A DNA stretch of 36,858 nucleotides from a virus. Taxonomy: Duplodnaviria > Caudoviricetes. The notes beneath the pieces were generated by a model. That model searched no databases and was not told the origin of the DNA. It saw nothing but the letters and a program-made list of their open reading frames with translations. The stretch spans positions 1 to 36,858 of IMG/VR virus record IMGVR_UViG_3300036982_000553. The stretch is one strand, 5' to 3'. The translations under genes were made by a program, and so were the position numbers. Within the stretch, counting starts at the first letter, position 1. Each line of letters opens with the position of its first letter. This document shows positions 128-34,051 of this stretch, piece after piece.

Positions 128-328
128 GCAGACGAAGCAGGCATCCGTCGGTCGCTCGAGGACGAACTCGATGCAATCAGGGCACATCCACCGTTGGACC
201 AAGTGAGGCTTGACCTTGCGGTTCACATCAGGGAGCGGCTTGAAACAACGCAGGCAGGTCTTTGGGATGGGTTGGTGCAGGGCGGCCTCACCGACGACCT
301 TCTTGGCACATCCCTTGCAGATGGTCAC
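20..328 (-). CDS. Cys-rich zinc-finger protein
   Basis: Four CxxC pairs (CKGC, CLRC, CPDC, CFVC); GTGA start/stop overlap with the upstream gene. Confidence 0.65.
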   Translation of the reverse strand: MTICKGCAKKVVGEAALHQPIPKTCLRCFKPLPDVNRKVKPHLVQRWMCPDCIEFVLERPTDACFVCGRPMTHRGFIKLRQTQKDPHERPAYREFVQGRKLV

Positions 329-939
329 TCGGTCCCCTCCTTGAGTTCGACCTCGACCTCGAACACGACCGACTTCACCGCCAAGGACTTCACAATGGCA
401 CGGCAGGACAGCCCGAGCATCTTCAAGACCTGCGCCTCGAGTACCTCAGTCCCGACCTCGATCGGCACCTGGTGGAACTCAACAACGGGAGGGGGTATTG
501 GTGGGCCTGGGTTGATGGTCGTCGTTACGTTGACCTCGGAGTTCGTGCATGTCACCACGCCCGAGTGGTCGACAAATTGCTTCTTGCACGCCTTTTCGTG
601 CCGGTCCCGCCATCCTGCCTTTGCGAACACTCGGTCACAGTTACGGCAAGGAAAGGAGACCACCTTCTCCCCCCGGTTGCCCGCCGCCATCGGTGGGGCC
701 TTGTGATTCATGCGCTTGAGTAGATCTCGGGCGCGTTCACGGTTGCAGTAGTGCGTCGCGTCCTGCCCCCTGACCTCTCGGACGAAGGTATCGTCCACCA
801 ACCGACGGATGGGGCCAACGAGCTTCCCAGGCGGCAGATCGAGATAGGCGGCTACCTGTCTCATGGTCGAGAGGTCCGAGAGGTCGATCACGGCAAGGAT
901 GTCAAGTTCGAAGGTCGACAATGCCTGTCGGTTGTTCAT
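325..939 (-). CDS. Winged-helix (MarR-like) plus C2H2 zinc-finger protein, putative transcription regulator
   Basis: N-terminal LSTFELDIL...TMRQVAAYLDL...IRRLVDDTFV is wHTH-like; CRNC-x8-RDRHEKAC finger; GAGGTG RBS and ATGA overlap place the start at 939. Confidence 0.65.
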   Translation of the reverse strand: MNNRQALSTFELDILAVIDLSDLSTMRQVAAYLDLPPGKLVGPIRRLVDDTFVREVRGQDATHYCNRERARDLLKRMNHKAPPMAAGNRGEKVVSFPCRNCDRVFAKAGWRDRHEKACKKQFVDHSGVVTCTNSEVNVTTTINPGPPIPPPVVEFHQVPIEVGTEVLEAQVLKMLGLSCRAIVKSLAVKSVVFEVEVELKEGTE

Positions 940-1124
940 GGCATACACCTCGCAAAGACCTCACAGAGACCGCCACGCTCGACTCTTCGTTTCTTGAGTG
1001 CGCAGAACAGAGGGTCGTTGGTCGTGTGGTTCGTGTCAGGGACGGGTTGACTGTGCTTGCAGTTCCCACAGCAGTCCTCATAGGTCTTGAAGGGTTTCCA
1101 ATTGTGCCAATCGACCTCATTCAT
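936..1124 (-). CDS. Small Cys-rich protein
   Basis: CCGNCKH...C...C pattern; GGAGG RBS; translational coupling with neighbours. Confidence 0.6.
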   Translation of the reverse strand: MNEVDWHNWKPFKTYEDCCGNCKHSQPVPDTNHTTNDPLFCALKKRRVERGGLCEVFARCMP

Positions 1125-2879: not shown

Positions 2880-3602
2880 TCACCAAGTGATTCTCGTTTG
2901 AAGTCGGGTTTGAGCTCCAGGGAACTCTCGAAGGGGGAAGGCCGTGCCTATGACCTCGTTCTTGGTGAACACGGCGACGTTGTCCCGTCGGCAGACGGTG
3001 ATCAGTTCGGCGGCCCACTTGACGAGGTCTTGCTTGTGTTGGTCCTTGATGCGCTTGCCTGTGACCTCCCCTATGATGGCCCAGTCGACGCCTTCGAGGT
3101 TGAGGTCCTTGGAGGATGGACCGAACAGGGGCTCGAAGCTGACGAACTTGATGGGGCGGGTATGCATGTCGTGGATGGCTAGGAGGGTCTGTAGTCGGTG
3201 GTCATGGCTCTCAGGTCGCTCGACCGTCGTCCCTATCCAGCAGTTCTTGGGCATGGGGTACTCCCTGTAACGCTCAGGGTTCTTGGTGAGGAACTGGAAG
3301 GTCAGCTCTGGGTGCCGACGGCAGGCCTCGATCACGGGGCTTATCCATTCGTCAGGGACCCAATGCCCGAACAGGTCGCCCATGTTGCAGACGAATACCT
3401 TCGAGCCTGCGGGTATCTTGAACTCCTTCTCGTTGATCTTCTCAGGGCGGAAGGTTGGGGTGAAGCCCTCCTTATAGATGCGCTTGGCGGTTCTTGCGGC
3501 GTAGCATCCATCGGGGCCGTAGTCGCATCCGTGCAGACATCCGGTGACCGGGTTCCAGGTGAAGTCGGTCCATTCGATCTTGCCGGGACCTTGGGGGTTC
3601 AC
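2880..3602 (-). CDS. DUF5131 / Gp37Gp68 family protein (three-Cys, radical-SAM-like)
   Basis: Signature KIEWTDFTWNPVTGC...GC...CYA, VFVCNMGDLF, FQFLTKNPER, FVSFEPL and WAIIGE motifs; GAGGTGA RBS before GTG at 3602. Confidence 0.9.
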   Translation of the reverse strand: MNPQGPGKIEWTDFTWNPVTGCLHGCDYGPDGCYAARTAKRIYKEGFTPTFRPEKINEKEFKIPAGSKVFVCNMGDLFGHWVPDEWISPVIEACRRHPELTFQFLTKNPERYREYPMPKNCWIGTTVERPESHDHRLQTLLAIHDMHTRPIKFVSFEPLFGPSSKDLNLEGVDWAIIGEVTGKRIKDQHKQDLVKWAAELITVCRRDNVAVFTKNEVIGTAFPLREFPGAQTRLQTRITW

Positions 3603-3754
3603 CGTCTCACCTCGTCCCTGAACATCAGGCATTCATACCAGGGGTCCTCAGCCTCAGCGACGGCCCCACAGACCTTGCACACGACCTGAAAGTCGCGTCC
3701 GGCCTCGTCCTCACGAATCTTCAACACCGGTGTGTGCTTGATGCAGGCCTTCAC
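3599..3754 (-). CDS. Small CxxC protein, 51 aa (not in the ORF track)
   Basis: Manual translation MKACIKHTPVLKIREDEAGRDFQVVCKVCGAVAEAEDPWYECLMFRDEVRR; GTGA overlaps at both ends fill the gap exactly. Confidence 0.6.
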   Translation of the reverse strand: MKACIKHTPVLKIREDEAGRDFQVVCKVCGAVAEAEDPWYECLMFRDEVRR

Positions 3755-4233
3755 TTGGTCACCTTCTCCTCGTGGCCGCGCTCGATCGAACGCACATCAC
3801 AGTTCGGGTTCATGCAGAAGTACCAATACCCAACGATTCCGTTCTTCACACCTTCTTGCGACCGCATCTCGCTACCGCACTTGGGGCACTTCTTTGAGCA
3901 TGGCGGCACCAGTTTGATGAACCAATGTACCCAGAGCAGTCGGTCATCCTTGGGCTCCTTGCCCCACCAGATCTGCTTGACCGCCTTCCTAAACTCCTGC
4001 TCGGAGTCGCATCCCTCGTTTCTGTAGAGTTTGGTCGCAATCGTTCCGTATGGGACCTGCCCGACCGACATAATCTGGAAGGTCGCTCCGAAGGCTGGAA
4101 AGGTGTCTCTATACTCTCCCATCTTCTTCGTCCTGCTCGTTACTACCTTGACATTCTCAAGCATCGACTTCTTCCACCGCTTCGAGAACGGTATCTCAAC
4201 CTCTGTCATGTCCTTCCTCCAATCCTCGCTCAC
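3751..4233 (-). CDS. ASCH/PUA-like domain protein with C-terminal zinc ribbon
   Basis: IPFSKRWKKSMLENVKVVTSR and EGCDSEQEFRKAVKQIW...WVHWF match the ASCH pattern; CPKC...CMNPNC ribbon. Confidence 0.65.
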   Translation of the reverse strand: MSEDWRKDMTEVEIPFSKRWKKSMLENVKVVTSRTKKMGEYRDTFPAFGATFQIMSVGQVPYGTIATKLYRNEGCDSEQEFRKAVKQIWWGKEPKDDRLLWVHWFIKLVPPCSKKCPKCGSEMRSQEGVKNGIVGYWYFCMNPNCDVRSIERGHEEKVTK

Positions 4234-4882
4234 AGGCGATTATGATCTCCTCGCAGAGTTCCCTCGGCACGATGCCTCGCTTGATGGCGGTCATGTTTCC
4301 CCATGCACGGACCTGCCCGTGCGCTCCTCCCTGGACGCCTTGCAGTCCCGTCTTGCCGCCTCGAGAGGCTATCTCATGACAGGGTGACCTCGGCTTGCAG
4401 ACTGGCCTTGGCTTCCATGCCATGCAGTTATTCCAGATGTCGGTCGGCTTCTGATACCCGAGTCCGTACTGGCAGTAGGTGACGGTCGACCGGTTCCAAC
4501 CCTGCATGAAGTTCATCATGCGGAGCATCCCCCTGGGGTTCTCGATGAAGTAGTAGGTCGGTTCGAGTTCTCGGATGATGGCGAGTGTCCGGCGCACTAT
4601 CTCCATCCCATCGAGCGCACCCTTAGAGATTGGGATGCGGCGAGGGCCGAACTTCTTCCAGTTCCTGCTGATTGCGGCGACGCTGAACGCTGTGCATGGT
4701 GGGGACGCCCCGATCACATCGGGCCGCCAACCCCCCAGTACCTTCGGCTCGAAATGATGGATTCGTGCACAGTAGGTTGGTTTGAAACGAGGGTTGCTGT
4801 CGAGCGTCCGGCAATCATGTCCCCGTTCCTCCGCCACTTTCGTGAACGACTTGGTGCCACAAAAGAGTTCTAAGCACTTCGT
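4196..4882 (-). CDS. Compact C5-cytosine DNA methyltransferase-like protein
   Basis: Motif I LELFCG, catalytic SPPC, IENPRG, YCQYG..QKPTDIW. Start is uncertain: ACG at 4882 behind GAGGGGG, or GTG at 4978. Confidence 0.8.
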   Translation of the reverse strand, partial: TKCLELFCGTKSFTKVAEERGHDCRTLDSNPRFKPTYCARIHHFEPKVLGGWRPDVIGASPPCTAFSVAAISRNWKKFGPRRIPISKGALDGMEIVRRTLAIIRELEPTYYFIENPRGMLRMMNFMQGWNRSTVTYCQYGLGYQKPTDIWNNCMAWKPRPVCKPRSPCHEIASRGGKTGLQGVQGGAHGQVRAWGNMTAIKRGIVPRELCEEIIIACERGLEEGHDRG

Positions 4883-5793
4883 CTCGTTAACCCCCTCTTC
4901 CTGACCACCGAACGCTCGTAATCCTTGTAGTCGCACGACCAGTAGAGCGCGGGCCGGTTCGCCCAATGACGCAACCACTTAGTGCGTTCACTAGGGACCC
5001 GGTCGATATTGAACATGACAAAGGATGTCACACCCCACCCCTTGAGGGCACGGCAACGGGCGAGTGCGGAGTCGAAGGCCTTACCGTCGTTGGAATCGAG
5101 GTAGACGTAGAACATGCACCGATGCCGGATGGGAACCCCCGCCTCTTTCAGTACTTCAAGTCCTTTGGTCACCTGCTTGCCGTACCGTTCGTCGTCATAG
5201 GCGAACTTCATCGGCTTGGCCCACTTCAACTCGTTGAGCCGGGCGGCTATCTGTGGTGTCATGTAACGGATGTCCATGCCGCCCTCAATTAGGCGGAGTT
5301 TCTGGTCACGAATCCATGCGCTCGTTTCCATGAACCAATCTTTGTTGGCGACCCAGTTGTTGTCCATGATCATGATGGTATCGAAACGGTCGTCGTGGAA
5401 CTCTTGCGGGTGCTGTGCGCGGGTGAGTCGGCCCTCCTTCTGCGGGACAATGCAGAAGCGGCACCTGCGGGTACACCCCCGCGTCGTGAACCCCATCGAG
5501 TACGCTTGGTCAGGGTAGAGGTCATAGTCCGGCTTGATGTTCTCGATCTCGGCCTCGAGGCGGGTTGAAAGGTCAAAGCCCGACCCACCCACGACTATCT
5601 TGGCATCGGGGTGCATGAACCTCAGCCCGTCGGACTTGTAACGGTTCTTCTTGAACACGATAGACGCATAGACGAGATCGGGGTCGCCTATGTGCCAGCC
5701 GACCGTGTCACCCTGGGCCTTGTGGTGTGCGCTCAGCTTCATGAGTGCCAGGTTCGGCTGAAGCGAGTCCACATCCACAAGCAGTACTTTCAT
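4870..5793 (-). CDS. Radical SAM protein
   Basis: TTRGCTRRCRFC (CxxxCxxC), IMDNN, GMDIRY; N-terminal PNLALMKLS segment seen in phage radical-SAM proteins. Confidence 0.9.
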   Translation of the reverse strand: MKVLLVDVDSLQPNLALMKLSAHHKAQGDTVGWHIGDPDLVYASIVFKKNRYKSDGLRFMHPDAKIVVGGSGFDLSTRLEAEIENIKPDYDLYPDQAYSMGFTTRGCTRRCRFCIVPQKEGRLTRAQHPQEFHDDRFDTIMIMDNNWVANKDWFMETSAWIRDQKLRLIEGGMDIRYMTPQIAARLNELKWAKPMKFAYDDERYGKQVTKGLEVLKEAGVPIRHRCMFYVYLDSNDGKAFDSALARCRALKGWGVTSFVMFNIDRVPSERTKWLRHWANRPALYWSCDYKDYERSVVRKRGLTRRSA

Positions 5794-5998
5794 CCTTGCC
5801 TCCTGCCTTCTTCAAGGCATCGACCTCTCCTTTCAACTGCACGACCAACTGTGCAAGGTCCTTGTAGGCCTTCGCCGCCTGCAGGTGAGTGATCTCGCAC
5901 CTGATCAGGCGGCAGTCGGTACACCGGCACTTCAGGTCGTGTCCGTTCGGCATCCTCTGTTCCTTCTTGGCGTCCTTCTCTGCCCTTCTGTGCGACAT
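5708..5998 (-). CDS. Hypothetical protein with HxxxCxCxxC motif and coiled coil
   Basis: GAGGTGA RBS before ATG; HDLKCRCTDC; overlaps the radical SAM start by about 85 bp. Confidence 0.5.
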   Translation of the reverse strand: MSHRRAEKDAKKEQRMPNGHDLKCRCTDCRLIRCEITHLQAAKAYKDLAQLVVQLKGEVDALKKAGGKDESTACGCGLASAEPGTHEAERTPQGPG

Positions 5999-6001
5999 GA
6001 T

Positions 6002-6451
6002 TCACCTCGGGTATGTCGGATGGTATGTCTCGGCTATGTGATCGAGAGACTCTAGGCCCCTGAATGCCTTCGTGTCGAACAGGGTAACCGCGAAGGGCCT
6101 CCGAATGAACAGGCCGCGTATCTCGCCCTCACCGAAGCACGCGCAGAACTCTCGGATGAACCTTGCGCATGATTGTGGAGTGGTGCAGGAGAACACGTCG
6201 ATGGCCATGTAGTTGAACTCCGGCCAGGTCGAAACGGTCGCGTGAGACTCTGCCAAGATCACGGTGGCGGTCACTCCGATAGGCTCGAAGTGATAGATCA
6301 GCGATGTCCTCACATTGAGACCTGCCCTCTCTGCGGCGTCCTTCATGTGGTCCAGTAGCTTCGCTTCATTGAAGCACTCCATCGGTGGAGAGAACTCCGC
6401 CAACACCTCGTAGCCTATTGTCCTGATTCCGTCGTCTGCTTTTGGTCGCAT
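6002..6451 (-). CDS. speD: S-adenosylmethionine decarboxylase proenzyme-like protein (pyruvoyl-dependent, class 1B)
   Basis: HFEPIGVTATVILAE-SH self-cleavage site, TWPE and IDVFSC motifs; GGGTGA RBS before ATG 6451. Confidence 0.85.
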   Translation of the reverse strand: MRPKADDGIRTIGYEVLAEFSPPMECFNEAKLLDHMKDAAERAGLNVRTSLIYHFEPIGVTATVILAESHATVSTWPEFNYMAIDVFSCTTPQSCARFIREFCACFGEGEIRGLFIRRPFAVTLFDTKAFRGLESLDHIAETYHPTYPR

Positions 6452-6455
6452 GTTG

Positions 6456-6557
6456 TCACCCGTCGATTCGCTCCACCCAGACGACATCGCTCTCCTGGAT
6501 GTTCACGAAGTCATCATTCACCAGTCCAATCATGTTGCCGTCCACGAACGCTTTCAT
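6456..6557 (-). CDS. Micro-protein, 33 aa (MKAFVDGNMIGLVNDDFVNIQESDVVWVERIDG)
   Basis: GGAGG RBS; ATGA overlap with the methyltransferase stop; fills the gap to speD. Confidence 0.5.
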   Translation of the reverse strand: MKAFVDGNMIGLVNDDFVNIQESDVVWVERIDG

Positions 6558-7489
6558 GCTTTCTTGCCCTCCTTTCTGAAGATCAGGGTGTACTCGTGTT
6601 GTCTCGGGACCAGGTACTTCTTGATGAACGAGTACAGGAATGTCTGCCCGAAGGATGCCCCCCAGTCCATGATGTGACAATCCCATTGACGCACTCCGTA
6701 GGGGTTCGAGTTGAACAGTTGTATCGTGTCTCCGTGATAGTTGTAGAACCGTCCACCCTTTCGGAAGTCCATGACGTTCCAGACGATGAACCCGCCCGGC
6801 TTCACGACGCGACAACACTCGTGGATGATCTCCTTCATCGTGCCCATGAACTCATCGTAGGTCTGAGCGCGACCTGCCTGCCTCTTGTCATCCCCGTAGT
6901 CCTCGATGTCCCAATACGGCGGAGAGGTCCACCCGACCATGTCGACCGAGTTGTCCTCGAGGTCGACCTTACGCGAATCATGATCGAGCACCTGTACGCG
7001 GTCGTCGATTCGTAGCTCGACTCGGACCTTACGCATGAAGTCAAGGAACTCCTGCGACACGTCATAGCCTATGTACCGCCGCTGAAGTCTCCACGCGGCC
7101 TGCATCTGCGCACCCTGACCGGCGAAGGGGTCGAAGATCAAGTCTCCCGGCTTCGAGTAGAACTTGTAGTAGAACACCAGGATGTTGTATGGTGCCTGAG
7201 ACAGCCCGCCCTTCCGTGCGCCGCATCCGGCTAGGGCGAACTCATGCGGCACGCCGGCGGCCACCATCTGCCCCTGCGGTCGATGATAGTTGCCCCGGTA
7301 CTCGTTGACGTAAGTCACAATGTAATCCCGGTTCAGGTGCTTTCTCACTCGGACGATGGACATGGGACGCTCGCCGAACTTCGCCTGTATCTCGTCGGCC
7401 TGCCGGTCCGACCGCTTGCGGAGACCGTAGTACTTGGGGTGGATGCCCCCGCCCTTCTCGTACCGTGTCTTATCCGGCGTTTTCGTCAT
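6554..7489 (-). CDS. Amino-group (N4-C/N6-A) DNA methyltransferase, SPPY type
   Basis: Motif I FDPFAGQG precedes motif IV TSPPYW; RVVKPGG and HEYTLIFRK motifs; GGAGG RBS before ATG 7489. Confidence 0.88.
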   Translation of the reverse strand: MTKTPDKTRYEKGGGIHPKYYGLRKRSDRQADEIQAKFGERPMSIVRVRKHLNRDYIVTYVNEYRGNYHRPQGQMVAAGVPHEFALAGCGARKGGLSQAPYNILVFYYKFYSKPGDLIFDPFAGQGAQMQAAWRLQRRYIGYDVSQEFLDFMRKVRVELRIDDRVQVLDHDSRKVDLEDNSVDMVGWTSPPYWDIEDYGDDKRQAGRAQTYDEFMGTMKEIIHECCRVVKPGGFIVWNVMDFRKGGRFYNYHGDTIQLFNSNPYGVRQWDCHIMDWGASFGQTFLYSFIKKYLVPRQHEYTLIFRKEGKKA

Positions 7490-8111
7490 GGACCGCCTCC
7501 ACCGATGCAATCAGGGCCATGAAGCGGTCGGCAGGTGTTTCACCCTCAAAACGCTTGAGTACCTCAAGGACGCGGTCTTTCTCCTCGGTTGTGAGCTCGA
7601 CCGCGTAGACCTCTGTTCTTCCAGCCGCTTTTCTGAACGAAGCGGAGTCTGAGATGTTCTTGTCTATATCCGAGAGTTTGAGGTCCTCGAGACCCATATC
7701 GATGTGATCGAGCACTTGGTTCTCAGTCATACCGATAGCCATTGCGATCTCCTTGGGGTCCTTCCTCTTGCTGAGGTCGGCAATGAGCTTGGCGAGCTTG
7801 ATCACATCAGGGTCGCCTCTCAGGATGTTGAGAGCCATCGTCTTGATCTTGGCCTCGTCGTCGTCTGCCTCGATGACCAAGGCCCAGACCTCCTCCGACC
7901 CGATCTCCTTGGCGACCGTCCACCTGTGTTCGCCGTCGATGATCTCCAACTTCTTGCCCCGCCGGCGGGCGAGGATAGGCTGGAGCATCAACTGAGGGTC
8001 CTCCTCTGCGATGCGCTTCTTCAGGGAGGCCATCTTGACCTCGTCAACGACGTTCGGGTTCCATGCGTTCGCTACGAACTTGTCCACTTTCACCTTTTCG
8101 TATTCCGCCAT
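7470..8111 (-). CDS. ParB/Sulfiredoxin-like N-terminal domain protein
   Basis: NAWNPN, QPILAR, IIDGEHRW and LNILRG motifs, followed by an HTH-like segment; adjacent to a methyltransferase as is common in phages. Confidence 0.85.
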   Translation of the reverse strand: MAEYEKVKVDKFVANAWNPNVVDEVKMASLKKRIAEEDPQLMLQPILARRRGKKLEIIDGEHRWTVAKEIGSEEVWALVIEADDDEAKIKTMALNILRGDPDVIKLAKLIADLSKRKDPKEIAMAIGMTENQVLDHIDMGLEDLKLSDIDKNISDSASFRKAAGRTEVYAVELTTEEKDRVLEVLKRFEGETPADRFMALIASVEAVHDENAG

Positions 8112-9190: not shown

Positions 9191-9369
9191 TCGGATGCCT
9201 CCTTGAGTCGGTTCATAAGTCGTTGAAAACGGTCCGTTGGAACGATGCGCCGGAGTTCCTGTTCCGCCTTCCCGCACTCCAGCATTATCCGAATGGATGC
9301 GAGAGAGCACTTGTCAGCGGCACACTCCTTGTTTCCACAGTTCTTGCATGACTCGCTCGACTCGCTCAT
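9187..9369 (-). CDS. Small Cys-rich protein
   Basis: CKNCGNKEC...C; ATGA overlap with the rusA stop. Confidence 0.55.
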   Translation of the reverse strand: MSESSESCKNCGNKECAADKCSLASIRIMLECGKAEQELRRIVPTDRFQRLMNRLKEASE

Positions 9370-9857
9370 CGGCGCTTCCTCCTGCTCAGCTCGAGGTTGA
9401 TGTTGTACTCGAGCGTTGCCTTGATCACCACTCCCTGCATGAGCGAACTGAACTGCCGCGTCGCGTGTAGGTCCATGACCTGCTTGTCGTCGGCATAGAA
9501 CACGCCTGTGAGCGCATCTAAGACGGCCCTAGCAAGCTTGTCCACATCCTTGCCCGTGATGTCCTGCACGACGTACCGTTGGGCACTTCGAGGTCGAACC
9601 CGCAAGAACTCGAGGTCGAGCTTCACCGCGTACTTGTCCGTCGGGTAGTTCTTGGCATCTCCCTTGTCCTTCACATCGAGCGCCATCGTGGTGATCAGGT
9701 TGCGCCACGACTTCAGATCGGCAGACCGCACATCAACGACCATCGCGCGGTGCGTGCGCGGGTTGACGAATGCGTTCTTCGACCCCTGGGGCACGGGTTG
9801 ACCAGGCACGAACAGGCGGTACTCGATGGTCTGAGGTGGCGGTAGGCCGTCAAACAT
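9366..9857 (-). CDS. rusA: RusA-family Holliday junction resolvase
   Basis: PGQPVPQGSK, DVDKLARAVLDAL and DDKQV carry the catalytic Asp/Lys pattern of RusA. Confidence 0.88.
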   Translation of the reverse strand: MFDGLPPPQTIEYRLFVPGQPVPQGSKNAFVNPRTHRAMVVDVRSADLKSWRNLITTMALDVKDKGDAKNYPTDKYAVKLDLEFLRVRPRSAQRYVVQDITGKDVDKLARAVLDALTGVFYADDKQVMDLHATRQFSSLMQGVVIKATLEYNINLELSRRKRR

Positions 9858-10385: not shown

Positions 10386-10638
10386 CTTGCCCAGTTATCG
10401 ATACTCGTACACTTAAAGCCTCTCCGAGTCGCCGTTCGACCGCTGATTGACGCTTCGATTTCTCTCGACATGAGACTGATGCACCGAATCTCTGGGTGTT
10501 GTCGGAGACCAGGTAGTTGTGCTGTTCATCCGGTGGCAGGGGCGCTATATCGACCATCGCCCTGCACCATCCACACTTCGTCCTGGTCGTGCCCGGGTTG
10601 CGCTTGATGACGTGTCCCGTCTCGCACTTGTACCTCAT
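10378..10638 (-). CDS. Zinc-ribbon protein
   Basis: CETGH...CGWC; GGAGGGT RBS before ATG 10638, just outside the left ORB-like element. Confidence 0.55.
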   Translation of the reverse strand: MRYKCETGHVIKRNPGTTRTKCGWCRAMVDIAPLPPDEQHNYLVSDNTQRFGASVSCREKSKRQSAVERRLGEALSVRVSITGQGD

Positions 10639-10655
10639 GGGTAACCCTCCAAAGA

Positions 10656-10850
10656 CCCCCCCTGTCATTTCTACTGGAGAAGCTGAAAAGTGTGTCTCGT
10701 CCCTCCCGCCGCACTCTAAAACACATTTCCGGTGGAGATTCCTTGAGTGAGTGAGTGATTAACTCTTTCGATAGATAGATATACCAACTCACTCAACAGA
10801 CAGGTCGTACACACTACTTCGAGAGTTCCAGTAGAAATGACAGGGGGGGG
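10656..10850. other. Putative replication origin of archaeal oriC type (inverted ORB-like boxes around an AT-rich core)
   Basis: Perfect 23-bp inverted repeat TCCAGTAGAAATGACAGGGGGGG at 10656-10678 (-) and 10827-10849 (+); mini-ORB-like TCCACCGGAAAT at 10725-10736 (-); AT-rich centre at about 10758-10784; largest non-coding gap in the genome. Confidence 0.75.
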
Positions 10851-10859
10851 CTGTTCCAC

Positions 10860-11147
10860 TCAGCCCCCCTCCTGTGTCGGACTTCCCTTCACTCCTCTTG
10901 CTTTCGGCTTCAGGTGATCAGGTCGTTCATCGAATGCCCGCGCCGACTCGGCTATGGCGACCTCCCTGATGGCAATCGACTCCTTGACGAGATGCTCTGC
11001 TTCGTCTCGGTTGGCTGAATCGAAGTAGGTTTTCAGCCGCTGATCGGCGGGGCCGTGCTCGAGGCAGTCGGTTTTCCCGCGCATCTCCTTGAGCTCCTCC
11101 TTGATGACCTCCCTCACGAGAGCCTTGAGTGCTAGGATGTCGATCAT
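10860..11147 (-). CDS. Hypothetical protein adjacent to the putative origin
   Basis: GGGGG RBS and ATGA overlap; stop lies 10 bp from the right ORB-like G-string. Confidence 0.6.
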   Translation of the reverse strand: MIDILALKALVREVIKEELKEMRGKTDCLEHGPADQRLKTYFDSANRDEAEHLVKESIAIREVAIAESARAFDERPDHLKPKARGVKGSPTQEGG

Positions 11148-13834: not shown

Positions 13835-16135
13835 TCACACGTCTGTGTGCACCTCGAGCATGAGCCTGGTCACCTTCAGTTTGTAGGGCCTCTCAGCCAC
13901 TTGGATGGCGATGGTGGCGACCGCCGTCCCAAGGGTCGCCGCATCGTAGAGCACCACCTGCCCAATGGGCGTCCCACTCACCGTGTAACCGTTCCCTGGC
14001 ATGAAAGTGGCGGCGTAGATGTTATGAGAGGCACCACCGAATGTCACGGATGTCTTGGTGCATCTAACCCGTGTCTGCCCCGAGATCGCCGCCCCGGCCG
14101 CCGTCTGTAGTTCGGCATAGAGTATCGTCGTGGTGACCGCTGAGGCATGCCTGAGTCTCAGGTGATAGTTGTAGACGAGATCACCCGCCGCGCTGAAGTT
14201 CTCCGCAAGGCGAGATTTCATGCGCATTGCCTCCAGTTCGTCGTCCTTGGAGTAGTCGTAGTTCGTGATCGAGAGGATGGTCTGCCCCGGCATACACTTA
14301 ACCGAGCGCACGCAGAAGGTCGACGACAACCCGAGCTCCCCAATGTTGACCGTGATCACCTTGCCGCCACAGTTAGTTGTCGCGGCGGGGGCAACGGGTA
14401 GATACATGAGATCAGGGTAGCAACCGCCGACTGTGATTGTCCCTTCCCAATCGGTCCGGTTGATGGCGGCCAAGATGCGCGTAGCCTCGCTCTGCGCGAC
14501 TGCATACTCTCTCAGATTCTTGTCCGTCACGCGATGCTCAACTGGACCGAATAGGGCGCGGCTGGTCCAATCCACCGCCGAGGCATAGATGGGCGTGCGG
14601 TCTGCACTTTCCCCGATGACCACGACGGTGTTGACCTTGAGCGGGTTGGCCTTCTTGAGGTCGTAGTCAAGGATGCGGTGCTCGGTGTCGGTCGTCCCTG
14701 AGTCGGAGAAGGTGACCGCTGAGGCGTCGGTAACCTGGATGCGTGGGCGCACGCAGATATACTCGTACCCACCCGACCAGTAATCATAGACCATGAGTTG
14801 TCGGTTCGACAACCCAGCTTCCTCGAGGTCACATATCTGTTGAATACACTCGAGGGGGGTCTTGCCTGCCGTCCGATAGATGCCGAAAGTGTCCGAGATA
14901 CTGGACGAGACCGCGTCGTAGGACGTCCCAAAGACTAGATTGATCAGGTTTTCAAGCACCGCCTTCTTCGTGACCGTCCCATAGAAGTAGGTTACACAGG
15001 CGCGCTCGTAGTATGAGTTGGTGTCGGGGATGTCATTACTCTGTCCGTCTATCCACATCTCGTCGGCGTAGGATGCGTTCGCGTACGCCTGACTGACATT
15101 CATCTCCTTCCAGGGCGAATATTCGAGCGCGAATGCGGCGAAGTTGTAGGTCTGTTCTACCCAGGAAGTGTTGTAGTACCATGCCCTTGGGTTGAAGGTC
15201 CCACCATCGGTCCCGATCTGTATGTCCACCGTCGTGGTCGTCCCCGATGCCTTCACGACGAGGGCGTATCCCTTATCTGGCCGCAGTCGGTCGGCATATT
15301 TGAAGCCGTCGCCGGTATCGTTGTCGGGATACCAGGCACAGTCGAACCAGGTGGCGTCGGAGAGTCCGGTCGTCCAGTCATAGTAACATATCCAAGTGCC
15401 CGAAGGTCCCGTGAGCGCATCGCACTCCTGGATGCCTACGCGCAGGGATGCGGTGTTAGAGGCTCCACCGTACACGCTGATATGCCACTTGTTGATGTGG
15501 TCGCCGTCCTTGCCAGAGAAGGGCTGGGCATACTGCTTGGTCGCATTGTCGAGCGTGACCGATGATGTGCGTGCGCTCGAGTACACTTTGATGTCATGCC
15601 GCAGACAGAGACTCACAAACAGAGGGGGGGCTACCCAGCCGGTGTCTAGGGTGTCGATGCGGGCAGGCCATGTAGGAGCCGCCGCATAGACCAACAACCG
15701 CTCGTACTCCTCACGGTAGGATGCCGCCCAATAGAAGTCCGCGATGATGCGTCCGAGCTTCGCAAGTGCGCTCTGGCATTCCACCTCGAGCAGTCCTCCT
15801 GCCGTCTGCTTGATCGAGACTATCTGCCCATGAAAGTACCGCGTCTTTGCGCTCGTGAGTGTCGGATACATCGAGAATTGCACCTCGAGCCCGCCGATCA
15901 GCGTGCCCGTGTTGAGCGTCGCGTCGTAGCTCCCGGAGGTGAGCCCTGAGTCCCAATTGTCAAAGGTGACTTTGAGTGCCATCGGGTACGATTCGTCGAC
16001 CTCCCACGAATAATCGGTTATGCGTTTCTGCGCATCGGTGTCGGTCTGCGCGAAGGTGAGTGTGTTGGAGGCGGTCTCACCTGGATACTTCCCTGCAACG
16101 GTGGCGATCTTGAGTTCGAACCGCTCGTCAGTCAT
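13835..16135 (-). CDS. Baseplate hub / tail tip protein with inserted beta-sandwich domain
   Basis: Largest ORF and last in the tail module; YFHGQIVSIKQ...LEVEC, KTPLECIQQI and VNTVVVIG are hub-like segments; aromatic-rich central insert. Confidence 0.65.
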   Translation of the reverse strand: MTDERFELKIATVAGKYPGETASNTLTFAQTDTDAQKRITDYSWEVDESYPMALKVTFDNWDSGLTSGSYDATLNTGTLIGGLEVQFSMYPTLTSAKTRYFHGQIVSIKQTAGGLLEVECQSALAKLGRIIADFYWAASYREEYERLLVYAAAPTWPARIDTLDTGWVAPPLFVSLCLRHDIKVYSSARTSSVTLDNATKQYAQPFSGKDGDHINKWHISVYGGASNTASLRVGIQECDALTGPSGTWICYYDWTTGLSDATWFDCAWYPDNDTGDGFKYADRLRPDKGYALVVKASGTTTTVDIQIGTDGGTFNPRAWYYNTSWVEQTYNFAAFALEYSPWKEMNVSQAYANASYADEMWIDGQSNDIPDTNSYYERACVTYFYGTVTKKAVLENLINLVFGTSYDAVSSSISDTFGIYRTAGKTPLECIQQICDLEEAGLSNRQLMVYDYWSGGYEYICVRPRIQVTDASAVTFSDSGTTDTEHRILDYDLKKANPLKVNTVVVIGESADRTPIYASAVDWTSRALFGPVEHRVTDKNLREYAVAQSEATRILAAINRTDWEGTITVGGCYPDLMYLPVAPAATTNCGGKVITVNIGELGLSSTFCVRSVKCMPGQTILSITNYDYSKDDELEAMRMKSRLAENFSAAGDLVYNYHLRLRHASAVTTTILYAELQTAAGAAISGQTRVRCTKTSVTFGGASHNIYAATFMPGNGYTVSGTPIGQVVLYDAATLGTAVATIAIQVAERPYKLKVTRLMLEVHTDV

Positions 16136-17099
16136 GGCGCACCACCGACCGTCTCCGCCTCTGCGGGATCTGCTTCATGGCAGATGGCACGCCGCCCCCC
16201 GACCATGTGCACGCGCAGGCCTTGGCAACGGTCGTCGGCTTCAGCCATCGTGTACCCGAGGCCTTCGAGAGAGTGCTCGAGGCACGATACCGGATGGAGC
16301 AAGCCTTCGAGACCGCAGTTACCAGTCTCCACCTGACCAGACTGGTCTTAGTGACGGTCGCGGGTTTCTTCCACCGCATGATCGAGGTCCTGCTGATTGT
16401 CGCCGCCTTACGCCACCGCATGATCGAGGTCTTGGTGAGCGTTGTTGCCCGAATCCACACCATGAATGAGGTCTTAGTGATCGTCGCGGGTTTCTTCCAC
16501 CGCATGATCGAGGTCCTGCTGATTGTCGCCGCCTTACGCCACCGCATGAACGAGGTCTTGGTGACCGTTGTTGCCTTGAGCCAGCGCATGGCCGAGGTCT
16601 TGGTGAGTGTCGTTGATGTGGTCACGGAGTAGGTCACGCGCACCCAGATGGCATCGAGAGAGAATGTGACCGATGATGACGAGTTGCCCTGGATGCCCGC
16701 GATGCGAACGAGCAAGTTCGCATCTCCCAATGCGGCCCAGGTCCAGGTCGTAACGCTGGTGACATCGAGCCAGTTGATGGTGTCGGTCAGGACCTCCGTT
16801 AGGGCAGTCGACAGTACATCCTGCGTGCTCCAGTTGGTGCCGTTATTCCAGGAGATCTCACGCCCGAGTGTGGCAATCGAGGAGGTCGTGCTGACCTTGT
16901 GCTCGTGCCCGATCTCCACCTTGGTGATGACCGTCGTTCCGCCGGGGTCCGTGATGCCAAAGGTTTTCCAGATACCCAGCACGCTCAGGTTCTTCCCCGG
17001 CGCGCAGGTGGCATAGCTATCGTTGCTCGTGTAGGCATTCGTGTTCGAGGTCCAGGCGTTCGTGCCAACCGCAGTCGGATTGTTACTTATCACGGCCAT
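16128..17099 (-). CDS. Putative fibre: N-terminal beta-sandwich, ten 14-aa repeats, Arg-rich tail
   Basis: Thr/Ser/Trp-rich N-domain ending LDAIWVRVTY; repeats like TTLTKTSxMRWxKA. Confidence 0.65.
   Translation of the reverse strand: MAVISNNPTAVGTNAWTSNTNAYTSNDSYATCAPGKNLSVLGIWKTFGITDPGGTTVITKVEIGHEHKVSTTSSIATLGREISWNNGTNWSTQDVLSTALTEVLTDTINWLDVTSVTTWTWAALGDANLLVRIAGIQGNSSSSVTFSLDAIWVRVTYSVTTSTTLTKTSAMRWLKATTVTKTSFMRWRKAATISRTSIMRWKKPATITKTSFMVWIRATTLTKTSIMRWRKAATISRTSIMRWKKPATVTKTSLVRWRLVTAVSKACSIRYRASSTLSKASGTRWLKPTTVAKACACTWSGGGVPSAMKQIPQRRRRSVVRHD
16200..16620. repeat. 42-bp (14-codon) tandem repeat with 126-bp higher-order duplication
   Basis: 16344-16449 and 16470-16575 are nearly identical (offset 126 bp); about 10 degenerate 42-bp units overall. 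Confidence 0.9.
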
Positions 17100-24913: not shown

Positions 24914-25155
24914 GCTATCCTCCTCGCTCCATGCGGGCCCGATGGGAGCCGGTCGAAGTGCGCCCACCTCTGGACTCTGTGGTCCCGCGCCTCTCGCTCA
25001 GTCATCGCTGAGCGCTCTCCGTGCTGCATCTTGTAACAGTCAGAGTGCCAAATGTCCTGCCCGTCGTCCACGACCTGCGCAGACTCGCGGTGCTCGATGG
25101 GATGCCGGCACCCTGGACAGGCGGCCTTCGCGCCATCCTCAACCGTGCGCGTCAT
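24910..25155 (-). CDS. Small LIM-like zinc-finger protein
   Basis: CPGC-x20-HSDC; ATGA overlap with the upstream stop. Confidence 0.55.
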   Translation of the reverse strand: MTRTVEDGAKAACPGCRHPIEHRESAQVVDDGQDIWHSDCYKMQHGERSAMTEREARDHRVQRWAHFDRLPSGPHGARRIA

Positions 25156-26309
25156 AGGAGTTCCACCTTCTTGTCCACGCCGTTGATGCGACAGATGAGG
25201 TACACCTTCGAGTCGTCCGTGTCTCTCCAGAGCATCGTCTGGCCCTCGGCGGTCAGGGTGGGCTGTGTCGCTTGCTCGATGTAGGCGTTCACACTTGCCC
25301 CACGAACGATGCGTGGGGCTAATGAGCCCGTCCCGCCCCACGTCGCCTCCACATGAGATGGTTCCGTGGTGATGGTTCCGAACGACCAAGGGACATTTGC
25401 GACATCGGTAACACAACGATTGCGTTCTGCCACCGTACCCAATAAATCTCCGGTCATGTAAAATCCGATGCCATAGACACCTCCAAAATTGTTGTCGGAG
25501 ATGGTGAACTTGCCAGGGCTAGACAGAGCGCACACGTAGGACACGTTGTAACCGTAATTTCGCAGAAATGTCGAACCATTGCAGGAGGTCGCGCTGAGGG
25601 GATAAACGACCGCCTCGAAGTAACTTTTTTCGACGTGATTAGACGGGCCGCCATTGACCTCAACGCCGACGTTGACATGCTCGATTGTGTCCTCTGACAC
25701 ATTGAACTCGTACGTGCTCATCAATTTGACGCCCGTCCCCGATGCGGTCGGATACGCCCCTCCGTAGCAATAATCAATGCTACTGTTTAGTATCCGCCAC
25801 ACTCTGACATCATTGTTTGCGTAGACTCCATGATACACATTGTGAATGTGACAGTCGCTGATGAGGCCGTAGATGCACGAAAACGGGGAACCATCTATAC
25901 GGATTCCAGAGCCGCCCCAGTTGTAGACATTCAGTTTTTCGAGTGTGACATGATTGCACGATGGAATCTTGAGAGCATTGCCAGTCTTGCTCTGCGACGC
26001 CTCTAGTGTGAGTTCTCGCAACTCCACCCCAGCCAGCAACGTGCCGCTCGGGACGATGGACAGACCATCCGAGGTGGTCGCATCAGTCCACACCAATTTC
26101 GACCTGTTGCGAACCGCCCCGCAGATCTGCGTGTCGTATGGCACGCTCAGCACGGTGCTGGGCATCGTGAAAGTACCTGCCGGAACGAACACCTGCCCAC
26201 CAGCAGTCGCGCCCTGGTCAGCGAGGGCCGCGCTGAGCGAGGAGAATCCGTAGTCCCCGATGTACCGGATTCCGTGAATCTTCGCGGGCTTCAGGTTGAT
26301 GAACGTCAA
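25152..26309 (-). CDS. Right-handed beta-helix protein (pectate lyase-like / tailspike-like)
   Basis: AALAD...GGQVFVPAGTF cap, then repeated I..N/C.I strands with G-I/V turns. Confidence 0.8.
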   Translation of the reverse strand: MTFINLKPAKIHGIRYIGDYGFSSLSAALADQGATAGGQVFVPAGTFTMPSTVLSVPYDTQICGAVRNRSKLVWTDATTSDGLSIVPSGTLLAGVELRELTLEASQSKTGNALKIPSCNHVTLEKLNVYNWGGSGIRIDGSPFSCIYGLISDCHIHNVYHGVYANNDVRVWRILNSSIDYCYGGAYPTASGTGVKLMSTYEFNVSEDTIEHVNVGVEVNGGPSNHVEKSYFEAVVYPLSATSCNGSTFLRNYGYNVSYVCALSSPGKFTISDNNFGGVYGIGFYMTGDLLGTVAERNRCVTDVANVPWSFGTITTEPSHVEATWGGTGSLAPRIVRGASVNAYIEQATQPTLTAEGQTMLWRDTDDSKVYLICRINGVDKKVELL

Positions 26310-27904
26310 TCTATCACCACCACCGGCTGAGGAGAATTGGAAGGTGGATACTTGGCGGCCAGCTCACCGAGCGTTAAAACATCGAGCCCCAAGCTCTTGA
26401 TATATGCACAGAAGGCGTCAAATTCTGAGAGAGTCCAGTCGCCTGTCCCGATGCTATGCCACAACAGTATGAGTACCTGCTTATTCGTAGATGCCGCCAG
26501 GACCTTCGCCTCTGCGGTAGCACGAGTTACCACGCCAGCCTCATAGCATTGCATGGCGTGAACGTTCGTCGGCGGCCAGTAGAAGTGATTGTATTGTGTT
26601 CCGCACGCTCCGAGTCTCCCGAAGTGGAAGTACGGCGCGAAGGCGTCCATGATGGCTTTGTTGTTGACACCTCCCGGAGTCACTTGGACTCGTGTCTTTG
26701 GGAGCAACCCATAGTGCGCTAGCCATCGCAGGTTGACGATGAACTCGGTCAACGCATTGGCGACCGATTGCCCCGTCCATGTCGGATGTGTCATGCTGTG
26801 GGCCATCATCTCCCAACCACCGTTACGCACAAGGTTCTGCATCTCGTCGGATTCTGTTGGATATAATCCGGGAACCCAACCGCACATCGCGTGCCATCCA
26901 TACTTGTCGAGTACAGGCTTCGCTGTGCTAGTCCAGCCCGAATCATGGTCGTCGAACGTGAATATCACTACGCCGCATGGATTCTGTTGTACGAAGACAG
27001 ATGTTTCGTCAAAGGTGACACTATGTGCCGTTCCAGACGGTGCGTAAATCCCTATGCCAATCGAAGTGACCGCTGTGTCATTGAAGTTCGCGGTCCCTCC
27101 ACAATCGCTCCAGTTGAGGTCATAGGTCACCCACGCTCCAGTTTCGGCAGGCTCATCCATCAGGCGCGTATTAGGGTTCAGCCATACTCGGGTGTACTCG
27201 GTATTGCCAGTGTTGTAGAACACAAGGAATACGGCTCCACCATTAGCGATTGCCAATGTGTGAGTATGCCAGTAGACGCGCAGGCGGTAATGAAATAATG
27301 CGTGGTCTCGAAGGTTCAATGTGTACCCCAATGCCTTGGCGAAGAAGGTGGAACTCCCATCGGTCAGCGTGGTCACTCGCACACTTTTCTGACCAGCAAT
27401 GAACTTCGATGTGTCGTCCGCGATGGTGGCGGTCCCAGTCCCAACCTTGACCCATGATGCATATCCTTCATCGAACACGGACAGGACGGAAAGGGGGTGG
27501 TATGCAGGCCCGCTCGAAAGTATGAGAGATGCGTCATACAGTTTTCCCCCCTCATACCTGTTCGTGGTCGGTCCCGGCCCCATGCCATCGGTCATGTCAA
27601 TGATCACGCCGTTGCCGCTCGTGAGACCTGCGAGCGCCGCCGCGTACACGGTCGCATAGGTCGCGCTCGAGGTCAGGAGCGCGCCTGTACGACTGTTGAA
27701 CGCCTTGAAAGTCGAGCCATCAAGAAGCACGACGTAGTCAGCGGGAACACCAAGGCCCTTGGCGAAGATCGCGCCGTCAGCAGTTACCCGGAACACGTCC
27801 TCGCCGGTGGAGGTCTCAAGAACGAGGCCGTCAGCTACTTGCCCTGGAGCCATGACAATGCGCTGAGCAACCGCATTGGGGTTCTGGTTGGCCGCCACAC
27901 CCAT
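26306..27904 (-). CDS. Polysaccharide deacetylase (CE4/NodB) domain protein with upstream carbohydrate-binding-like domain
   Basis: VIFTFDD, WEMMAHSMTH, TPGG and LILLWH motifs; central beta-sandwich; GAGGTG RBS before ATG 27904. Confidence 0.85.
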   Translation of the reverse strand: MGVAANQNPNAVAQRIVMAPGQVADGLVLETSTGEDVFRVTADGAIFAKGLGVPADYVVLLDGSTFKAFNSRTGALLTSSATYATVYAAALAGLTSGNGVIIDMTDGMGPGPTTNRYEGGKLYDASLILSSGPAYHPLSVLSVFDEGYASWVKVGTGTATIADDTSKFIAGQKSVRVTTLTDGSSTFFAKALGYTLNLRDHALFHYRLRVYWHTHTLAIANGGAVFLVFYNTGNTEYTRVWLNPNTRLMDEPAETGAWVTYDLNWSDCGGTANFNDTAVTSIGIGIYAPSGTAHSVTFDETSVFVQQNPCGVVIFTFDDHDSGWTSTAKPVLDKYGWHAMCGWVPGLYPTESDEMQNLVRNGGWEMMAHSMTHPTWTGQSVANALTEFIVNLRWLAHYGLLPKTRVQVTPGGVNNKAIMDAFAPYFHFGRLGACGTQYNHFYWPPTNVHAMQCYEAGVVTRATAEAKVLAASTNKQVLILLWHSIGTGDWTLSEFDAFCAYIKSLGLDVLTLGELAAKYPPSNSPQPVVVID

Positions 27905-27914
27905 CGGTGGCACC

Positions 27915-28331
27915 TCACTCGAGGTATATCCAGATCTCGCCAATCTTCGTGTCGCCTGCACCGCTGATGGTGAGCACGGGCTTCGCCTCATTCACGAGGG
28001 GGTGATCAGCATAGGTGTTCGCGCCGACCGTGACCTCCTGCATGATGAGTGTTGACTCGGTGAGTGCGGTGTCTCGGTTGACACCTCTGCCAGCCAGCAG
28101 GTCGTGACCATCCATCGACGAAACGAGAGTGATGTCGTAGTCGTCCGTCGGAGCGGTTGCGCTCGGCTTGGTCACGAGCATGATCAGCCTGCCGGACAGG
28201 TAGGGACACTCATCAAGAGCCGCCGTGAACGTCCCATCGGTGGCCGACTGCCACTTCAGGTAGTAGCACGCGACGCCTCCAGGGGCTTCCCTGTGCTCCA
28301 TCCATTGCTGTGCAAGTACTGCTTGAGCCAT
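27915..28331 (-). CDS. Putative minor capsid / spike-base protein
   Basis: All-beta 138-aa protein with APTDDYDITL...DLLAGRG; GGAGG RBS; follows the capsid genes. Confidence 0.55.
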   Translation of the reverse strand: MAQAVLAQQWMEHREAPGGVACYYLKWQSATDGTFTAALDECPYLSGRLIMLVTKPSATAPTDDYDITLVSSMDGHDLLAGRGVNRDTALTESTLIMQEVTVGANTYADHPLVNEAKPVLTISGAGDTKIGEIWIYLE

Positions 28332-28354
28332 AGTTGTTGACCTCCGTTGTTATG

Positions 28355-28400
28355 GGGTTTACTCCCCTCAAAAAGTAGGGGAGGGTAAGAGTAAAAGAGT
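28355..28400 (-). terminator. Putative terminator/attenuator after the capsid genes
   Basis: Minus-strand pyrimidine tracts CTCTTTTACTCTT and CTTTTT plus inverted repeat CTCCCCT/AGGGGAG (28362-28368 and 28377-28383). Confidence 0.55.
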
Positions 28401-28406
28401 TTATCC

Positions 28407-28700
28407 TCAGCTGTTGCCAACGAGCCGGAGTCCCACTATGCCGACATCGACTGCCGCCGTCACCTGCGTATCGGCGGCGGTGTAGGCCATGACCTTCTTG
28501 TTGGTCACGTCGATCTTGAACATATACCCGTTCTCCTTCGAGTAAGGGATGACCTCGTCGAAGTTGATCGAGTCCAGACCGAAGCTGGCCGGCGTCAGCG
28601 TCTCCCCGCCTGTCGTGTAGCTCGTGATGTCCATCTGTGCGTACACGACATGGGCATCGCTCTCGATGGTTGTCCTCTTGACGGTGACGGCGTTGGTCAT
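28407..28700 (-). CDS. Probable capsid decoration / cement protein
   Basis: 97 aa directly after the major capsid gene; SYTTGGETL motif; GGTGGTGG RBS. Confidence 0.6.
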   Translation of the reverse strand: MTNAVTVKRTTIESDAHVVYAQMDITSYTTGGETLTPASFGLDSINFDEVIPYSKENGYMFKIDVTNKKVMAYTAADTQVTAAVDVGIVGLRLVGNS

Positions 28701-33952: not shown

Positions 33953-33984
33953 GATACGCCCCCCATAGGGACCCCGTTCGATAA

Positions 33985-34045
33985 ACTACACCTTTGCTCA
34001 GATATTGGCGGTTGAGGGTGATTAAGGTGCCTGATGTTGTGTAGT
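33985..34045 (-). promoter_or_regulatory. Candidate late promoter region
   Basis: Non-coding gap ahead of the portal; TATA-like CTTAAT (34021-34026) bracketed by inverted ACTACAC/GTGTAGT (33985-33991 and 34039-34045). Confidence 0.4.
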
Positions 34046-34051
34046 GCGGTG

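Follow-up and report, generated by a model that had tools for sequence, protein, structure and literature searches.

In bacterial plasmid and phage origins with DnaA boxes, and in EBV oriP, a mobile element recruits the initiator of its host. These origins still need a factor encoded by the element itself, Rep or EBNA1. For many archaeal viruses, which have no replication proteins of their own, it is stated only that they depend on the machinery of the host (bioRxiv 10.64898/2026.08.12.739948; PMC11706807). Others, such as SNJ2, the Thermococcales viruses and the magroviruses, encode Orc1/Cdc6 or MCM. The SNJ2 Orc1 (Orf8) is described as regulatory (PMC10123103), Thermococcales viruses are reported to be without classical ORBs (PMC12934983), and AGV1 has been judged unable to replicate alone for want of ORBs. 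ORB sequences were noted by Ori-Finder 2 near the predicted origin of the pleolipovirus HHPV4 (PMC5867852), where they appear as a passing software prediction; no mechanism or host-Orc1 model was found with it. The literature outside subscription papers yielded no functional proof that a virus uses a bare oriC.

More is known of cellular origins of the oriC1 type. An inverted pair of ORBs, ORB2 and ORB3, around a duplex-unwinding element (DUE) is reported to be needed in vivo and to direct MCM to the DUE, and Orc1-1 alone recruits MCM (PMC12141716). In H. hispanica oriC1, a C-run lies at site I and a G-run at site II, and neither is dispensable (PMC3936714). A cdc6 gene need not be present in cis for origin activity (PMC4010727). 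For Methanomassiliicoccus, Table 2 of PMC4153887 gives two pairs, each with an inverted left and a forward right box, 256 and 113 bp apart; in our own reading of this table, the G-runs of these Methanomassiliicoccales pairs point outward.

The locus described here resembles these cellular origins and is found in a virus. The stretch of DNA analysed (the window, 36,858 nt) is IMG/VR record IMGVR_UViG_3300036982_000553, a complete circular head-tail virus with a 127-nt terminal repeat and a net length of 36,731 bp. Its CheckV completeness figure of 36% probably reflects the small number of close references, as relatives are 35–38 kb long. The genes tile the minus strand. Annotation of 65 ORFs with Pfam and PHROGs recognised terminase, portal, protease, capsid, neck and tail genes, as well as two methyltransferases, an AdoMet decarboxylase, a radical SAM protein, a ParB-N protein and RusA. 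An HK97-type capsid, portal, terminase and protease (PHROG 24667, 2662, 38 and 23555) place the virus among the Caudoviricetes of archaea. The 9 GenBank matches of the capsid are vir519, whose host is given as Methanofastidiosa, and haloarchaeal tailed viruses; since all of these are archaeal viruses, the host is archaeal. A Thermoplasmata-like euryarchaeon is a plausible host, judging by GC content, the flavour of the boxes and the kinship of the capsid. Methanofastidiosa viruses carry boxes of the same flavour as the window's, which weighs against fixing the host as Thermoplasmata-like. The metagenome runs that contain window DNA come from sediment and groundwater, and a single 36.6-kb contig in run X1, possibly the run from which the record derives, spans the origin region.

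Several other features of the genome may be recorded. The methyltransferases (C5 and N6/N4) form a DNA-modification cluster at 4196–8111 with the radical SAM, AdoMet decarboxylase and ParB-N proteins, and a DUF5131 protein is encoded at 2880–3632. Six 42-nt tandem units at 16302–16637 give a tail-associated protein a basic repeat of 14 residues. Beta-helix and polysaccharide-deacetylase proteins are encoded at 25152–27991, in the head-tail region.

The element sits in a gap of about 220 bp between genes. Two 23-bp boxes (10656–10678 on the minus strand and 10827–10849 on the plus strand) are perfect inverted copies with 148 nt between them, and their extended arms (10653–10678 and 10827–10852) are 96% identical. 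Both G-runs point outward, with 7 G on the left and 8 G on the right, where the ORB as annotated extends to 10850. A mini-ORB-like half site without a G-run lies between the boxes on the minus strand (10725–10736). The original prediction had described the two boxes, their outward G-runs, the spacer and the mini-box, and each was recovered at the same position. Its statement that this is the only large non-coding gap does not hold, as the gap at 33812–34051 (about 240 bp) is about as long. This second gap lies upstream of the portal gene and is probably a late promoter.

An AT-rich centre had also been claimed. The spacer indeed contains the lowest-GC 100-bp segment of the genome and its least stable duplex at 40, 80 and 120 bp, but its AT-richness is modest (41% GC, compared to 58% for the genome). 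The candidate DUE (10743–10796) comprises the genome's least stable 40-mer, flanked by a 10-bp inverted repeat (10743–10752 and 10787–10796). In addition, symmetric 7-mers at 10689–10695 and 10809–10815, located 10 and 11 bp inside the ORBs, are possible accessory sites. A GC-rich hairpin on the minus strand (10845–10869) overlaps the right G-run just past the stop of the upstream gene; it is a possible, weak terminator candidate, with one such hairpin found where 0.7 would be expected by chance. An ATG in frame with the next gene falls inside the left box; the likely start of that gene is at 10638, behind a Shine-Dalgarno motif. Rfam and tRNA searches gave no match. A strong predicted fold (z −6.2) is accounted for by the inverted repeat alone, and a structured RNA was therefore rejected. 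GC skew shows no switch supporting an origin, and is uninformative because all genes lie on one strand.

Measured against the published archaeal consensus, the right box matches at 18 of 23 positions, a value reached in 0 of 100 shuffles, and the left box at 17 of 23, reached in 4 of 100. An ORB matrix scan had been suggested as a check, and it placed the pair far above shuffled sequence. With a matrix built from 22 boxes of other viruses, the left and right boxes score 27.6 and 29.7 bits and the pair 57.3 bits, compared to a maximum of 12.2 in 20 shuffles, although this score is not fully independent, since the pattern used to collect the training boxes was itself based in part on the window's core. 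On the same matrix, the best inward-facing pair in the window reaches 9.9 bits. Chance resemblance is thus excluded as the source of the box pair. In the right half of the core, the G of the published consensus is replaced by an A in both boxes, which also have one extra base compared to the Methanomassiliicoccales consensus. The variant A is common to 2 other viral contigs. No cellular copy of this core variant was found in a scan of GTDB contigs for the exact 20-mer, which gave one chance match, in a bacterial gene, and the box gave no host prediction. A blastn search with the box returned nothing in plasmids and 9 chance-level matches in phages.

Because ORBs bind Orc1 with polarity, the orientation of the boxes was compared with that in cellular origins, using published tables and figure legends. 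The window shares with archaeal oriC1 (Sulfolobus ORB3-DUE-ORB2, H. hispanica oriC1 and the predicted Methanomassiliicoccales origins) two inverted ORBs of consensus type with outward G-runs, in the cellular polarity as given in PMC4153887 Table 2 and the legend of PMC3936714 Fig. 5, and an AT-rich candidate unwinding element between them. Its spacing of 148 bp compares with 113 and 256 bp in Methanomassiliicoccales and a region of 130 bp in Sulfolobus, and its inner inverted repeats recall those of H. hispanica oriC1. Unlike the cellular origins, the element is a predicted origin that belongs to a virus, deviates in one core base in both boxes, and lies on a replicon without orc1/cdc6; an adjacent copy of that gene is usual, not required. 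By its sequence, the element is of the oriC1 type and unusually clean, and the virus that carries it has no recognised replication genes.

The absence of replication genes had been part of the original prediction, and two kinds of search agree with it. A six-frame search of the window, with positive controls, found no Cdc6 (PF09079, TIGR02928), MCM, PolB, archaeal primase or tyrosine integrase, and Cdc6, MCM, PolB, primase and integrase are likewise absent among the 65 ORFs searched with Pfam and PHROGs. No virus-encoded initiator (Rep, Cdc6, MCM with a DNA-binding domain, or primase-polymerase) was recognised in the window. Unlike SNJ2, the Thermococcales viruses and the magroviruses, the window therefore carries the DNA site only, and unlike DnaA-box origins and EBV oriP, it has no recognisable factor of the Rep or EBNA1 type. 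It also resembles HHPV4, a member of another family, in being an archaeal virus with ORB-like sequences. The gap is probably a viral replication origin fired by host Orc1/Cdc6; the host protein is predicted to act here since the searches of the virus revealed no initiator gene. The oriC1 reading draws support from the sequence, orientation and spacing of the boxes, the instability of the duplex, the missing replication genes, and the recurrence of the layout, described below, in distant relatives and unrelated archaeal viruses that share no viral binder.

A second strain, about 97% identical (run X4, contigs at a depth of about 5), shows no listed changes in either box, and its spacer carries 6 substitutions and a 4-nt insertion. 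Zero changes in 46 box bases, compared to about 1.5 expected, fits conservation of the boxes and is not significant alone. These data bear on the idea that a non-functional fragment of a host oriC was captured, or that the element serves packaging or recombination and its likeness to ORBs is fortuitous. The lack of a full pair in three close relatives (see below) would be consistent with recent capture. However, the boxes are perfect copies that stay intact where the spacer has changed, the layout recurs in many viruses, and chance is excluded by the matrix score; moreover, there is no integrase, and the site is 8–13 kb from the terminase genes. This explanation is very improbable.

The closest relatives were found by a capsid search, in which 4 records at about 65–70% identity appeared among the 80 matches listed. 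Three of these cover the region (G001, G002 and G003). All three are syntenic with the window, and each has a gap between a homologue of the upstream 95-aa gene (10860–11147, minus strand) and the gene for the RusA-type Holliday junction resolvase (9366–9857, minus strand; Pfam PF05866, PHROG 3055/140). Homologues of the upstream gene were found in G001 and G003, and the G002 gene matches those two. The original prediction had made conservation in relatives a test of itself, and the outcome is mixed: the full ORB pair is present in 0 of the 3 close relatives, but in at least three distant kin (G006, G008 and G010, counted as kin by capsid or terminase match). In G002, the best pair genome-wide lies in the syntenic gap at a borderline 19.8 bits, compared to a null maximum of 19.2. 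In G001 and G003, no ORB pair was detected by matrix scan, and the gap contains differing short direct repeats instead. The syntenic gap is the least stable duplex in G003, the first or second in G002, and outside the top five in G001. A half site related to the mini-ORB, noticed post hoc, occurs in the syntenic gap of all three.

The G002 gap (28038–28141), which lies between a 297-aa gene and a predicted coiled-coil gene, is very AT-rich over 80 bp and has a short outward inverted repeat like a decayed ORB. In G001 (14634–14920) and G003 (3320–3590), unrelated iteron-like direct repeats precede a predicted ribbon-helix-helix/coiled-coil gene that is 65% identical between them. These repeats are possibly a fast-diverging private origin or operator. 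G001 encodes an integrase and G003 is classed as a provirus, and the presence of unrelated repeats at the site in two temperate relatives suggests origin exchange. We infer that the site is an exchangeable origin slot in which integrating relatives hold other repeats. ORB-type pairs are found in 5 of 5 integrase-free genomes tested, two of them degenerate. A link between ORB loss and becoming integrating is speculative, as the two genomes concerned are closely related and so count as one event.

Box pairs were also sought in other viruses. A scan for outward core pairs 135–165 bp apart returned 19 loci, five of which (G006–G010) have full tailed boxes. Thirteen were set aside for want of an ORB tail, as chance, coding or palindromic repeats, and in one, L118, the repeat is extended and its tail is not a G-run. 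The inward-pair control returned 5 loci, of which four are palindromic cores shared with the outward set and one is a box cluster. Among G006–G010, the boxes are 86–100% alike and the spacers 47–79%, the core being imposed by the search pattern. Two of them, G008 and G010, are complete viruses of 36–37 kb whose capsids are 28% identical to the window's, and G006 shares terminase and portal with it. G008 and G010 form a clade that includes Tara Oceans proteins, and support for joining it to the window clade and vir519 is weak (92/86). Cdc6 was found in 0 of the 5 genomes, and MCM and PolB were absent in the four searched. The ORB tail in these five contigs, which come from viruses of 36–37 kb without recognised replication genes (for example at 3850–4035 in G008 and 28205–28412 in G010), is a GT-repeat rather than a G-run, and may mirror the ORB of their host. 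In the window, G006, G008, G010 and G033, the two boxes differ alike in the two bases before the core, a possible functional asymmetry.

A single-box scan gave 31 loci, of which five have an outward G-tailed partner (two of these near-identical) and none an inward one; L243, which is in a 37-contig bin, and L230 count weakly. Cdc6 was above the cut-off in 0 of the 15 records searched, and a weak Cdc6 match in G034 falls in a P-loop protein. Two small elements, L230 (a 3.7-kb contig) and G040 (11.5 kb, complete), carry ORB pairs or clusters, and the L230 genes are, by eye, unlike head-tail genes. Among known viruses, vir521 (BK063668.1; locus L223, 18329–18513), whose host is given as Methanofastidiosa, carries an outward ORB pair that is clear, with about 130 bp between the boxes. 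It resembles the window in this pair and in its lack of Cdc6, and differs from it in encoding PCNA. The window's nearest GenBank relative by capsid (29%), vir519 (BK063666.1; locus L222, 35488–35630), has an outward pair that, unlike the window's, is degenerate (25.7 bits, compared to a null maximum of 23.3). The pairs carry no annotation in either record. In 19 more distant capsid relatives, mostly fragments, the exact core occurs once, as a single copy, and in none of the other 18; two complete genomes among them encode their own MCM and have no ORB pair. A search with a single capsid for related loci gave nothing.

These comparisons bear on whether the boxes are read by the host or by the virus. 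The element could be an origin whose true initiator, or essential co-initiator, is a small unrecognised viral protein that binds the boxes or the inner repeats, in the manner of EBNA1, which brings ORC to EBV oriP. Many small window ORFs are without annotation and leave room for such a protein. The window also encodes a winged-helix and zinc-finger protein (325–948, minus strand), which is the main candidate, as well as several orphan small proteins, and there are extra symmetric motifs in the spacer. In G001–G003 and vir519, moreover, a gene with a predicted ribbon-helix-helix/coiled-coil fold, read by eye, lies directly after the gap. The window has no homologue of this gene, however, and the winged-helix protein has neither similarity to Cdc6 nor a homologue in the compared ORB-pair viruses. 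The relatives' coiled-coil protein gave a predicted fold with a pLDDT of 62, no PDB match at E≤0.001 and Atlas leads below 0.9 only, and searches with it and with the upstream protein returned only G001 and G003. Furthermore, the boxes match the pan-archaeal ORB, G-run included. None of 40 non-structural window proteins is common to the ORB-pair viruses compared, which argues for a host binder. A viral initiator is therefore considered unlikely.

Binding by host Orc1/Cdc6 could also serve regulation, with the boxes acting as a titrating decoy or as a cell-cycle or DNA-damage operator of the downstream genes. Orc1 proteins are reported to regulate transcription as well (PMC3607249; PMC10123103), and ORB clusters titrate Cdc6 in H. 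hispanica (PMC4010727). The left box is 18 bp from the likely start of the next gene, and a lone box occurs in G032, a virus with its own PolB. Against this, two boxes in inverted order and a spacer that melts easily and has the right size for MCM loading would not be required for a decoy or an operator. The full boxes number only two, and the virus has no other recognisable route of initiation. A regulatory role instead of an origin is thus quite improbable. The original prediction had added that the element might titrate the initiator or sustain a cell-cycle-coupled episome. With two full boxes and one mini-box, these suggestions found no direct support, and cell-cycle coupling, episomal persistence and titration are speculative.

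If the gap is a host-fired origin, its mechanism can be drawn from its cellular analogues. As at the oriC1 of Sulfolobus and Haloarcula, each box would bind one host Orc1-1-type monomer with fixed polarity. With both boxes occupied, MCM hexamers of the host would be loaded onto the spacer by the two monomers, and bidirectional theta replication would begin with the host replisome. Viral RusA may resolve later recombination intermediates before packaging.

More broadly, origin mimicry may be a general and so far undescribed replication strategy of archaeal viruses. This proposal is tentative and, as a whole, somewhat doubtful, a grading that covers jointly the mimicry strategy, cell-cycle licensing, slot exchange on integration and the source of chromosomal origins. 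A lineage of tailed viruses of 36–38 kb, together with unrelated viruses, would, without a replication enzyme, present a bare copy of oriC1 to host Orc1, and viral copying would thereby be licensed by the host cell cycle. A lineage that turns integrating would swap the origin slot for private repeats, since a provirus with a host-fired origin would supply the chromosome with an additional one.

For archaeal viruses that encode no replication proteins, a bare ORB-DUE-ORB would provide a concrete and testable entry to the host machinery, in the form of a 200-bp fragment, purified Orc1-1 and MCM. If the prediction is true, the element would offer a minimal origin for vectors and a sequence marker for archaeal hosts. 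It would also support the movement of chromosomal origins on extrachromosomal elements, and if origin mimicry holds, such viruses would be a direct source of new chromosomal origins.
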